Origin: Dehalococcoidia bacterium
GTDB taxonomy: Bacteria > Chloroflexota > Dehalococcoidia > Lucifugimonadales > JAGWBF01
Length of the DNA stretch: 28,734 bases
Assembly (NCBI GenBank): GCA_021296015.1
Contig: JAGWBG010000001.1
Location: 1-28,734 of the forward strand
Direction of reading: 5' to 3'
The position numbers and the translations under genes are program-made. Positions 8,150 to 26,295 of this stretch are shown in pieces (position 1 is the first letter of the stretch; every line of letters begins with the position of its first letter). The notes under the pieces were generated by a model that worked only from the letters and a program-made list of their open reading frames with translations, was not told where the DNA came from and ran no database searches.

Positions 8150-8275
8150 CACCTTATCCAGAGAGGCAGAGGGAACGACCCTGAGAAGCCGGGCAACCGG
8201 TCGGGGTCATGGCAGATGTCCATGACACGACACGGTGCTAATTTCGGCCCCGAAGGTTCGGGGAAAGATGAGGGG
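8150..8275 (+). promoter_or_regulatory. SAM-I (S-box) riboswitch aptamer
   Basis: CTTATC-AGAG...GAGGG...CCC..GAA..GGCAACC...GGTGCTAATT...GAAAGATGAG; P1 CTTATC/GATGAG; directly upstream of SAM-cycle genes. Confidence 0.95.
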
Positions 8276-19172: not shown

Positions 19173-20381
19173 TTAGTTCTCCTCTCTATTTTGTCTAAAT
19201 GAGCTATCAGATTTGGCATCGTACAAAGTCAAGAGGTCATCCTCTTCGTCGTCACCGCCCCTGTCATCCCAAATGGGCTTGTCATCTTCAACCTCGAACT
19301 GGGCGGCAATATGACTATCGTCACCAATCTCACTAGATGTCTGGAACACCCCAACTCCCTCCTGTGCGCCTCCATTGGTCCCGTGGCCGGGCAGCCTTGC
19401 TGCCGCGTCCTCTTCGCTCAACATACCCTTGGCACCGAGCTTGGTCAGAAGCTCCTCCAGTGACTTCTCTCCGAAGTTTCTTATCTTGAGGAGCTCACTA
19501 TTGCTCATTTCAAGCACCTGGCCGACTTTGCTTACGTAGGCCCGCTTGAGACAGTTGAGGGTTCTGGGAGTAAGCTCCAGCTTCTCAATGGGGGTCTGGT
19601 ATATCTCAGGAGATACCGTAATTAGGGGCCTGTCAGCACCGCCTTTGGTCTCGTTGCCCAGATTGCTGAACAGGAAGAAGTGGTTGACCAGCACGTCCGA
19701 TGATTTCTTGAGGGCGTCTATGGGGGTTATCGTACCATCGGTCCACATCTCCAACACCAGACGCTCGTAATCGGTGACATGCCCTACACGGGTCCTCTCG
19801 ATTGCGTAGTTGACCTTCCTCACGGGGCTGAAGATGGCATCAACCGGCAACACGCCCATAAGAGGCCCCGTTATTCCATCGCCCTGGCTAACGGGTTGGT
19901 AACCTTTGCCGTGGTCTACGTTGAACTCCACCGAAATAGCGGCATCATCCGAGTCCAGGGTGGCCAGGTGATGTTCCGGGTTGACGATTTCGAAATCGGC
20001 GGACGTGGCTATATCCCCTGCACACACCCTGCCCTGTCCGGTTATTTCAAGACGCATCTTACCCGGTCTGCCGGTAACAGAGCGTATCCGTATTCCCTTC
20101 ACCCTCAGGAGAAACTCCATGACCTCTTCTCTCATGTGGGATATGTTGGAATACTCGTGCAAAACCCCGTCAATCTTCACCCACGTGATGGCGGTCCCCT
20201 CTATGGAACTCAAGAGCATACGCCTTATAGGGTTACCTATAGTCATGCCATAGCCCCGTTGCAGCGGCTCTATGGTAAACTTGCCATAGGTATTATCAGC
20301 CTGGAGTATCTTAATCTCAGGGGTAAGGTTCTCAGTCCCGCCCTGGGTTGTTCCTCTGGACATGATAGAGGTTTCCAACAT
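19173..20381 (-). CDS. rpoA: RNA polymerase alpha subunit with a long acidic C-terminal tail
   Basis: EPLQRGYGMTIGNPIRRMLLSSI, LPVDAIFSPVRKVNY, RTLNCLKRA and IRNFGEKSLEE motifs. Confidence 0.97.
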   Translation of the reverse strand: MLETSIMSRGTTQGGTENLTPEIKILQADNTYGKFTIEPLQRGYGMTIGNPIRRMLLSSIEGTAITWVKIDGVLHEYSNISHMREEVMEFLLRVKGIRIRSVTGRPGKMRLEITGQGRVCAGDIATSADFEIVNPEHHLATLDSDDAAISVEFNVDHGKGYQPVSQGDGITGPLMGVLPVDAIFSPVRKVNYAIERTRVGHVTDYERLVLEMWTDGTITPIDALKKSSDVLVNHFFLFSNLGNETKGGADRPLITVSPEIYQTPIEKLELTPRTLNCLKRAYVSKVGQVLEMSNSELLKIRNFGEKSLEELLTKLGAKGMLSEEDAAARLPGHGTNGGAQEGVGVFQTSSEIGDDSHIAAQFEVEDDKPIWDDRGGDDEEDDLLTLYDAKSDSSFRQNREEN

Positions 20382-23826: not shown

Positions 23827-25152
23827 CTACCTCAAAAATCCTTCGTAGTTTCGCATGAGCAACTGGGCCTCTAGCTGGCGCAAGGTATCCAGGGCTACCC
23901 CCACCATAATCAGCAAGCTGACACTGGGAAGCACCGCAGCTTGCACGTCCGTGATTTGGGAGGCGATGTAGGGCACAATCGCCACGAAGCCCAGGAATAG
24001 CGCTCCCCCCACCGTGAGGCGCAGAATGACACGGTTGAGATAGTCCTGAGTGGGTTGGCCCGGTCGGATGCCGGGCACAAATCCTCCGTTTCGCTGGAGG
24101 TTCTCCGCAAGGCTTTGCTGCTGAAAGACCACCAGTGTGTAGAAGAAGGTGAAGATTACCACCAACAAAAAGGTCAGTACCCAATAGAAGCCGTGGGTGG
24201 GACTGAACCAGACAGAGAGCGTGCCAGCCAGATTTCCTATCCAATCCTCTCGGACTCCCACGAAGCTGGCTATGGTTCCAGGCAATATGACAACGGAGAA
24301 GGCGAAAATGAGGGGAATCATCCCCGCCGAGTTTATTCTTATGGGCAAATAGGTAGCACCCGTTTGGCGATACATCCTGCCACCGCGAAAGATGCTGCGC
24401 CCGTATTGTACCGGTATCCTGCGGTGGGCCTCTGTGAAGACCACGATGAGGGCCATAACAGCTACCGCGATAATTGCCAGCCAGATTATCCCCAAGGCGT
24501 TGGTCTGGTCCGATGTCTGCTGCATCAGGCCGGGGAAGCCTGCGACGATACCGGCGAAGATGATGAGAGATATGCCGTTTCCGATGCCTCGCTCGGTGAT
24601 TAGCTCGCCCAGCCACACAAGGAACATGGTCCCTGCGACCAGTGACCCAAGCATTGCTATGGTGGCTATAAAGTCACCGTTGCCGGGCCCGGACCAAACA
24701 TTGCTGATAACTCCGGCTTGCTGGATAAGCTGCAGTTGCCCATAGCCCTGAGCAAGAGCTATGGGGACCGTCAGCCAGTGGACGATACGGTTAATCCTTT
24801 GTCGTCCCGACTCGCCTTCCTTGGAAATACGCTGCAAGCTGGGTATGACGGGAACAAGTAGCTGCATCACGATGGATGAGGTTATATAGGGGAACACACC
24901 GAGGGCGGCGACACTCATATTTCTGAGAGCGCCCCCGCTAAACAGGTCAAGGAACCCCAGAAGCTGGTTGGAATCGAAGAGGTTGTCTAGCTCGTTCTGG
25001 TCTATTCCGGGGAGTGGGACCTGGGCCATGAACCGGAACACGGCCAGCAGGGCCAGGGTGAACAATATCTTTCCCCGGAGGTCAGGAATGCGGAAGGAGT
25101 CAATGGCCGCCTGGAGCAGCCGTGGTCTCCCCTCTATCTCTTGGGTCATCAT
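23827..25152 (-). CDS. secY: Preprotein translocase subunit SecY
   Basis: ALGVFPYITSSI, GIGNGISLIIF, RRIPVQY, AGMIPLIFA, FVPGIRPG and SLLIMVGV motifs. Confidence 0.97.
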   Translation of the reverse strand: MMTQEIEGRPRLLQAAIDSFRIPDLRGKILFTLALLAVFRFMAQVPLPGIDQNELDNLFDSNQLLGFLDLFSGGALRNMSVAALGVFPYITSSIVMQLLVPVIPSLQRISKEGESGRQRINRIVHWLTVPIALAQGYGQLQLIQQAGVISNVWSGPGNGDFIATIAMLGSLVAGTMFLVWLGELITERGIGNGISLIIFAGIVAGFPGLMQQTSDQTNALGIIWLAIIAVAVMALIVVFTEAHRRIPVQYGRSIFRGGRMYRQTGATYLPIRINSAGMIPLIFAFSVVILPGTIASFVGVREDWIGNLAGTLSVWFSPTHGFYWVLTFLLVVIFTFFYTLVVFQQQSLAENLQRNGGFVPGIRPGQPTQDYLNRVILRLTVGGALFLGFVAIVPYIASQITDVQAAVLPSVSLLIMVGVALDTLRQLEAQLLMRNYEGFLR

Positions 25153-25154
25153 GT

Positions 25155-25598
25155 CTAGATTGCCTCTGCCCTTCCTCCGACCGCTTCTATCTTCTCACGT
25201 GCAGAGTCCGTGAACTTGTGGGCGCGTACTCTGAGCGGGACTGTGATCTCGCCATTGCCAAGGATTTTCACCGGATGCTTTATGCTCCTCAATATCCCCG
25301 CCCTGACCAGGCTTTCCGGGACTACTTCCGAGTCCCTGGGGAACCTGTTTAGCTCCTCCAATTTCACCAGATGGTATTGTTTTTTGAATATGTTGGTGAA
25401 CCCGCGCCTCATGGGAAGCCCCTTTATGAGGGGCAACTGTCCTCCCTCAAACCCTGGCCGCACGCCTCTACCCGAGCGCGACTTCTGGCCTTTCATGCCA
25501 CGACCGGAGTAGCTTCCATGGCCGCTGGCATCTCCCCGGCCAAGCCGCTTCCTGTTCCTCCTTGTTCCAGGAGTAGGGGCTACCTGATGCTCCATCAT
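25155..25598 (-). CDS. rplO: 50S ribosomal protein L15
   Basis: RLGRG.ASG.G..SGRG.KGQKSRSG and FEGGQLPL motifs. Confidence 0.97.
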   Translation of the reverse strand: MMEHQVAPTPGTRRNRKRLGRGDASGHGSYSGRGMKGQKSRSGRGVRPGFEGGQLPLIKGLPMRRGFTNIFKKQYHLVKLEELNRFPRDSEVVPESLVRAGILRSIKHPVKILGNGEITVPLRVRAHKFTDSAREKIEAVGGRAEAI

Positions 25599-25599
25599 T

Positions 25600-25758
25600 T
25601 TAGGAGACCTCCCACCTTATCAAAACTCCTCGGGGATTAAGGAAATGCCGTTCTATGTTCCATCGATACGCTGCAAGTGTCCGAAGGGGTGTCCAAATAG
25701 GGAATCTCATCTTATCTCGACCGGGAACGGTTTTGCACCCGTGATACTCCACGAGCAT
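25600..25758 (-). CDS. 52-aa ORF occupying the rpmD (L30) position; highly divergent L30 or decaying remnant
   Basis: ATG directly follows the rpsE TAG, and TAA ends 1 nt before the rplO ATG: MLVEYHGCKTVPGRDKMRFPIWTPLRTLAAYRWNIERHFLNPRGVLIRWEVS. Only weak eyeball similarity to L30. Confidence 0.35.
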   Translation of the reverse strand: MLVEYHGCKTVPGRDKMRFPIWTPLRTLAAYRWNIERHFLNPRGVLIRWEVS

Positions 25759-26295
25759 CTACCGTTCCGGTGTCCCCAACCCCTTGCGCATTGCTATCTC
25801 CTGAGCGGGGTCCTTCAGCTTTTGCAAAGCCTCAAGGGTGGCATAGACCACGTTGATGGGATTGCGAGATCCCAGGGACTTGGCAACGGCGTCTTTCACC
25901 CCCGCCAGGTCCAGGACAGCTCTGACCACGCCGGCGGCGATGAGGCCGGTGCCCGGAGGCGCAGGCTTGATGAGGACCAGCGAGGCACCCTTCTTGGCCG
26001 AAGCCTCCTGGGGTATGGTGCTCCCCCTTAGCGGAATTTTAATCAGGCTCTTTCTGGCGGAGGCGTTACCCTTTCGGACGGCATCGGGGATGGCTAGAGC
26101 CTTGCCAAGACCGGCTCCAACTATTCCCTCACCGTCTCCTACGACCACAAGGGCGTTGAAACGCAGGTGACGTCCCCCTTTGACAACCTTGGCTATGCGA
26201 CGGGTGGATACCACCCGCTCATTCAGGTTAAGATTGGAAGCGTCTATCTTTCCACCGGTAAATGGGATAGGGGTTTGTGGCAATGTGGAGACCAT
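25759..26295 (-). CDS. rpsE: 30S ribosomal protein S5
   Basis: RIAKVVKGGRHLRFNALVVVGD and PAPPGTGLIAAG motifs. Confidence 0.97.
   Translation of the reverse strand: MVSTLPQTPIPFTGGKIDASNLNLNERVVSTRRIAKVVKGGRHLRFNALVVVGDGEGIVGAGLGKALAIPDAVRKGNASARKSLIKIPLRGSTIPQEASAKKGASLVLIKPAPPGTGLIAAGVVRAVLDLAGVKDAVAKSLGSRNPINVVYATLEALQKLKDPAQEIAMRKGLGTPER

Follow-up and report, generated by a model that had tools for sequence, protein, structure and literature searches.

Apparent loss of the ribosomal protein L30 gene in uncultured soil Dehalococcoidia and a probable chance open frame in the spacer between rpsE and rplO

Introduction

What becomes of the place of a ribosomal protein gene when the gene itself can no longer be recognized? 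The question is raised by a window of 28,734 nt (the whole stretch of DNA analyzed here) from an uncultured soil lineage of Dehalococcoidia (Chloroflexota) that is known from metagenome-assembled genomes (MAGs) only. At the position of rpmD, the gene of ribosomal protein L30 (uL30), this window carries an open reading frame (ORF) of 52 codons, for which the initial annotation offered three readings: an extremely divergent L30, a replacement peptide, or an L30 pseudogene caught in the middle of its decay.

Loss of L30 of this kind is already known from other bacteria. Lineage-specific loss of rpmD has been described for all CPR/Patescibacteria, Mollicutes, Halanaerobiales, several endosymbionts, and some Alphaproteobacteria (Galperin et al., 2021, 10.1101/2021.01.31.429008; Tsurumaki et al., 2022, 10.1101/2022.01.07.475337, the latter citing Brown 2015 and Yutin 2012). 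L30 sits at the surface of the ribosome and joins late in its assembly, and in CPR bacteria, which are without it, S5 and L15 become adjacent; in Halanaerobiales five of six are L30-less, with genomes of 2.5–4.0 Mb (Galperin et al., 2021; Tsurumaki et al., 2022). The literature that we searched yielded no paper describing L30 loss in Dehalococcoidia.

The rpsE-rplO Junction and Its Surroundings

The ribosomal operon lies on the minus strand of the window in the order rplE, rpsN, rpsH, rplF, rplR, rpsE, a gap of 160 nt, and rplO, and continues after rplO with secY, adk, map, infA, rpmJ, rpsM, rpsK, rpsD, rpoA, and rplQ. Three of these genes, rpsE, rplO, and secY, are clean equivalogs by NCBIfam (Table 1). 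The 52-codon ORF occupies the spc-operon position between rpsE and rplO, and its geometry on the minus strand is as the initial annotation had described it, with no base between the rpsE stop and the ORF start and 1 nt between the ORF end and the start of rplO. The stop codon TAG of rpsE (25761–25759) directly adjoins the ATG of the ORF (25758–25756), giving TAGATG, and the stop codon TAA of the ORF (25602–25600), which is located between the Shine-Dalgarno sequence GGGAGG of rplO and the rplO start codon, leaves a single base (25599) before the rplO ATG (25598–25596). The assembly from which the window comes amounts to 2.08 Mb (338 contigs), with a completeness of 87%.

Table 1. Features at and next to the rpsE-rplO junction, with the evidence for each.
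Feature	Position	Strand	Evidence
rpsE (uS5), 178 aa, intact	25759–26295	-	PF00333 and PF03719; TIGR01021, 184.8 bits
Spacer, 160 nt, probably non-coding and neutrally evolving; presumed ancestral slot of rpmD (L30)	25599–25758	-	identity, indels, GC
52-codon ORF, in our judgment open by chance rather than a gene	25600–25758	-	no family match, unconserved
Shine-Dalgarno sequence GGGAGG of rplO, within the 3' end of spacer and ORF	25608–25613	-	sequence reading
rplO (uL15), 147 aa, intact	25155–25598	-	TIGR01071, 146.6 bits
secY, next operon gene after rplO	23827–25152	-	TIGR00967, 354 bits

Two further features of the window lie away from this junction. The ORF at the rpoA position (19173–20381, minus strand) has 402 aa and shows 66–95% identity to relatives, which is below that of the neighboring genes; bacterial RpoA has roughly 315–340 aa, and the ORF may contain a lineage-specific extension or an over-called start. 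At gathering score, Rfam finds a single match in the whole window, a SAM-I riboswitch at 8151–8274 on the plus strand (RF00162, 69 bits, E 2e-14).

Similarity of the ORF to L30 and Other Proteins

Does the 52-codon ORF encode L30 in a form that is merely hard to recognize? Searched against Pfam and NCBIfam, PF00327 included, the ORF gave zero matches even at E ≤ 10 and remains under the curated PF00327 cut-off of 23 bits, which bears out the earlier statement that no recognizable L30 fills the slot. An HMM built from the L30 of relatives likewise scored about 0 bits in the six frames of the spacer. The motifs K-S-x-I-G, L-G-L-R-R, and I-R-G-M are all present in the L30 of 12 relatives, and none of them occurs in the ORF.

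To catch a pseudogene with several frameshifts, we used a frameshift-tolerant profile-to-DNA alignment against the L30 profile of the relatives. The sense strand of the spacer scored 18.2, a value equal to the shuffle mean and reached by 30 of 100 shuffles, while genuine rpmD genes score 174–205; the loose parallels to L30 motifs that had been pointed out in the ORF are thus at chance level. With rpmD DNA profiles (family-only and order-wide), nhmmer found nothing on either strand of all L30-less spacers, and the positive control L007 was recovered at E 5e-16. To judge from these searches, the coding strand of the spacer retains no statistically detectable rpmD sequence.

Other protein families do not claim the ORF either. 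A phmmer search with the 52-mer among 1.84 billion (1.84e9) representative proteins found no real homologue; the sole match, to a tandem-repeat protein of 625 aa, adds up a weak match of 34 residues twelve times and was rejected as an artefact. The single-sequence AF2 model of the 52-mer is of low confidence (pLDDT 60.7, pTM 0.36) and too poor for comparison with the two-layer alpha/beta fold of L30. On sequence grounds, we regard the 52-codon ORF as not a member of uL30.

Departures from the usual motifs are also seen among the L30 proteins that the family has kept. Genus g10 and a neighbor (L014, L026, L027, L023) have A-G for the usual I-G and I-L-G-M for I-R-G-M, and their rpmD genes are under strong purifying selection (omega ≤ 0.06).

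Evolution of the ORF and the Spacer within the Genus

Conservation was judged from two other species of the genus, G002 and G001, the latter a single-contig genome. Metagenome contigs added no sequences to this comparison: an exact-pattern scan for genus-level relatives gave 0 matches, and a protein-seeded scan found none closer than 66% rplO identity. In G002 the flanking genes are 95–96% identical to the source genome at the nucleotide level, whereas the spacer, of 159 nt, is 88% identical. In G001 the flanks are 88% identical and the spacer has shrunk to 133 nt with 69% identity, with indels of 15, 11, and 1 nt (27 nt) and stops in every frame. The start codon of the ORF reads ATA in both species, and by parsimony the ATG is therefore a derived single-base change found in the source genome only. 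A deletion of 1 nt shifts the frame of G002 after 9 codons, and the same frame is open across the last 42 codons, ending at the same stop.

The substitutions tell a similar story. Over the 42 codons that can be aligned with G002, the ORF has 11 non-synonymous and 2 synonymous changes, corresponding to a dN/dS (omega) of about 1.9, and the changes fall 4/7/2 on the three codon positions. The corresponding positions of rpsE carry 1/1/18 changes, with 98.9% amino acid identity and a dN/dS of 0.04, and those of rplO carry 4/1/17, with 97% identity and a dN/dS of 0.08; the rpmD genes retained elsewhere in the family have an omega of 0.00–0.10. The spacer diverges by about 0.12–0.13 per site, not far from the dS of the flanking genes (0.14–0.18), and the best conserved stretch among the three species is formed by its last ~25 nt. 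Its GC content is 49% vs. 57–59% in rpsE and rplO. The GC3 of the ORF is 51% vs. 65% in these two genes, so that the codons are indeed more A/T-ending, as had been noted.

By our estimate, an open frame of 52 codons arises by chance at 49% GC with a probability of roughly 8% per frame, and the exact fit of the ORF to the spacer is less striking than it appears. The ORF is, as far as such comparisons can tell, not a gene but a frame that is open by chance in leftover DNA free to mutate. The pseudogene reading of the initial annotation came nearest to the truth and was nevertheless overstated, since the spacer, located where rpmD was truly lost across the lineage, behaves as neutral DNA and holds no detectable rpmD on its coding strand. 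The same annotation had taken an unconserved ORF together with a normal rpmD elsewhere as speaking against its view: conservation of the ORF is absent, and no normal rpmD was found elsewhere.

Distribution and Age of the L30 Loss

Is L30 missing from the slot only, or from the genome? A six-frame search with PF00327, which gave matches in 14 of 14 control genomes, found nothing in the whole source assembly at E ≤ 10, and tblastn with the L30 proteins of 12 relatives against the whole assembly reached a best E of 0.054. As the assembly is only 87% complete, the case for the absence of L30 from the source genome depends on synteny and on relatives with complete genomes. The locus that holds rpmD in relatives is contiguous in the source genome, and at E ≤ 1 the six-frame search of two single-contig genomes was empty for G001 and gave for G009 just one chance-level off-site match (E 0.23). 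The L30 gene has, on this genomic evidence, truly been lost in the source bacterium and its near relatives.

The loss extends over a good part of the uncultured family to which the genus belongs. By PF00327, nine of its 28 species, in seven of 14 genera, are L30-less, G001 and G009 among them, and rpsE and rplO are adjacent in all nine genomes. The distances between the two genes are -4, -1, 39, 91, 133, 142, 159, 160, and 209 nt in these genomes, whereas they are 238–351 nt in the L30-bearing members of the family; L30 was found in 31 of 41 relatives. The rest of the ribosomal operon is intact and under selection: each of 20 genomes yielded 15 of its proteins, except for one outgroup with 14, and these are 87–100% identical within the genus. 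The L30-less genomes tested have kept the other ribosomal proteins that are readily lost, namely S21, L25, L34, and L9, and the loss of L30 is thus isolated and not part of a general reduction of the ribosome.

In two L30-less genera of the family the end of rpsE and the beginning of rplO share 4 nt (ATGA) or 1 nt (L019/L192 of G007 and L016/L189 of G015); at these junctions the same loss has reached its end state, with full compaction. The longest spacer of an L30-less genome, the 209 nt of G009 (L011), has by eye one proline/serine-rich frame such as would come from palindromic repeat elements, and it may be an inserted repeat rather than the remains of rpmD.

At the level of the class, L30 is present in 375 of 401 sampled Dehalococcoidia species with a completeness of at least 90% (the tally takes in the unpublished G249, in which L30 is present and on which no claim rests), and the remaining L30-less species of the sample cluster in a few other families. 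Loss of L30 appears to be recurrent within the class. Further L30-less Dehalococcoidia belong to the families f60, f46, f70, and f56, including all listed members of f60, whose genomes have 1.0–1.7 Mb, and 4 of 11 in f46. A 14-nt overlap of rpsE and rplO is seen at three loci (L051, L052, L099). Outside the phylum, a Caldanaerobacter sp. MAG (L063) and a Peptococcaceae MAG (L078) have rpsE-rplO gaps of 26 and 33 nt with no L30 match within the gap, and they may be additional Firmicutes lineages in which the usual site lacks rpmD.

When was L30 lost? A maximum-likelihood tree of 15 proteins (2,894 columns) places the source genus (g1), g11, and g8 together in an L30-less clade (SH-aLRT 93–96) and needs four changes of the L30 state within the family, under a mixture model and LG+G4 alike. 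The family is a short-branched radiation, and a single L30-less clade is not rejected by the AU test (delta lnL 20, p-AU 0.31). The loss predates the genus, and rpmD was probably lost in the ancestor of a clade wider than the genus; we make no claim on the number of losses.

Explanations for the Spacer and Its ORF

We consider it very likely that rpmD was lost in the ancestor of the genus, that a neutral, non-coding spacer remains, and that the 52-codon ORF is an accident of drift. In this scenario the loss took place inside the uncultured soil family, and what remains between rpsE and rplO would be a transcribed, non-coding spacer of the operon that presumably descends from the rpmD region. 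The spacer would drift near the neutral rate, the sole part kept being its 3' end with the ribosome-binding site of rplO; one of three frames would be free of stops by accident, and the recent change of ATA to ATG beside the rpsE stop would have supplied a start codon. Ribosomes finishing rpsE may occasionally re-initiate at this ATG, so that the ORF may be translated by stop-start coupling, with a product under no selection. The ribosome itself would work without L30, as in CPR bacteria, Mollicutes, and Halanaerobiales. A counterpoint to simple drift is that a spacer of 130–210 nt persists in all five genomes of g1, g11, and g8, whereas in other L30-less lineages it has shrunk to 0–91 nt. The spacer might therefore serve some purpose, but between genera the spacers cannot be aligned except for one short match between L010 and L011.

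Three readings would give the ORF or the spacer a function. That the ORF is an extremely divergent yet functional L30 has next to no chance of being right: a product of 52 aa in the rpmD slot fits in position and length, but no frame matches the profile, the similarity of the sense strand is that of chance, the frame is broken in congeners, and purifying selection is absent, while the L30s retained in the family are well conserved (66–73 bits, omega ≤ 0.10). It is very unlikely that the ORF instead encodes a micropeptide that is very young and restricted to the lineage, or that it is a "bridging" ORF whose coupling to rpsE holds ribosomes on the mRNA as far as the start of rplO, so that the act of translation is selected and not the peptide. 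The adjoining stop and start in TAGATG, the ORF stop 1 nt ahead of the rplO ATG, and the frame of G002, open over its last 42 codons with the same stop, are what such coupling would look like; however, no Shine-Dalgarno sequence lies upstream of the ORF ATG, the ATG is missing in G002 and G001, the G001 spacer has stops in all frames, G007 and G015 manage without any spacer, and the dN/dS of ~1.9 does not speak for a selected peptide. The "replacement peptide" of the initial annotation fails on the same grounds, being an orphan ORF with a start codon unique to the source genome and that same dN/dS, and its "extremely divergent L30" fares no better, given the lack of any profile match, of purifying selection, and of an intact frame in the sister species. 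Highly improbable, too, is a cis-regulatory RNA such as an attenuator or a protein-binding leader for rplO-secY. The spacer is kept at 133–160 nt across the genus and one hairpin pairs the rpsE 3' end with 25724–25731, but there is no Rfam match in the spacer at gathering score or at E ≤ 10, its folding energy is not better than that of shuffles (z +0.5), its divergence is fast and rich in indels, and its coding strand has no terminator-like site. Promoter, terminator, and repeat scans of the spacer found nothing, the single promoter-like match (9 of 12) overlapping the rplO start codon.

A last alternative refines the loss of rpmD rather than replacing it, in that the spacer would be a remnant of rpmD inverted in place, which was flipped antisense, silenced, and then decayed. 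It draws on the antisense strand, where the frameshift-tolerant alignment to the L30 profile scores 31.8: GLRKC-RSMFHRYAASVR and, after a +2 shift, GCPNRESHLI are colinear with 28 positions of the profile (25628–25717, plus strand), an alignment that requires one deletion and one +2 frameshift. This score was reached by 1 of 600 shuffles and by 17 of 9155 windows drawn at random from the same genome (p ~0.002, uncorrected), and G002 scores 31.1 at the same place. However, about ten strand-by-spacer tests bring the corrected p near 0.02, the source window and G002 are near-identical and thus not independent, and the homologous codons of G001 are no more L30-like. HMMER gives -1.3 to +2 bits and nhmmer nothing on the antisense strand; moreover, an inversion of 200 bp within the operon would have taken place without supporting inverted repeats, and if the loss predates the split of g1, g11, and g8, neutral DNA could keep no signal. 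The antisense resemblance to L30 is probably due to chance, and we hold the inversion to be unlikely. Unlikely as well is a wider version, in which the family forms a time series of several independent, partly recent losses with spacers eroded one after another, and in which rpmD was here inverted in place with a faint antisense remnant still visible. If true, it would provide a dated, mechanistic case of free-living bacteria shedding the gene of a near-universal ribosomal protein.

Significance and Comparison with Known Systems

Loss of rpmD with a drifting spacer, the reading that we prefer, has several practical consequences. It guards against misannotation, as it would be wrong to annotate the 52-codon ORF as L30, as a hypothetical ribosomal protein, or as a novel peptide, and it adds a family of free-living soil Dehalococcoidia with genomes of 2.5–3.8 Mb to the lineages without uL30. 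L30 is also a standard marker in phylogenomics and in estimates of completeness, and its real absence slightly lowers the completeness estimates of these MAGs. Since L30-bearing and L30-less genera occur side by side, paired comparisons of their rRNA and of the neighboring proteins could show what makes L30 dispensable.

The ORF resembles uL30 (PF00327) in its operon slot and similar length, and differs from it in having no profile match, none of the motifs, and no conservation among congeners, and in evolving neutrally. Its likeness to the spurious ORFs of decaying intergenic DNA or pseudogene remnants is much more extensive: it is an orphan with a lineage-specific start codon, its dN/dS is near or above 1, and its GC3 is under that of real genes. 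It differs from these in that it spans the spacer exactly, and hence looked designed.

The family as a whole can be set beside the known losses of rpmD. As in those cases, rplO follows rpsE, no L30 gene is present anywhere in the genome, and the loss is common to related genomes; the family further resembles Halanaerobiales in having genomes of ordinary size (2.5–3.8 Mb) and not those of reduced symbionts. The Dehalococcoidia family differs in that its loss is a mosaic, affecting seven of 14 genera, and an isolated one, with S21, L25, L34, and L9 kept, and in that some of its lineages retain a spacer of 90–210 nt in place of a tight junction between rpsE and rplO.
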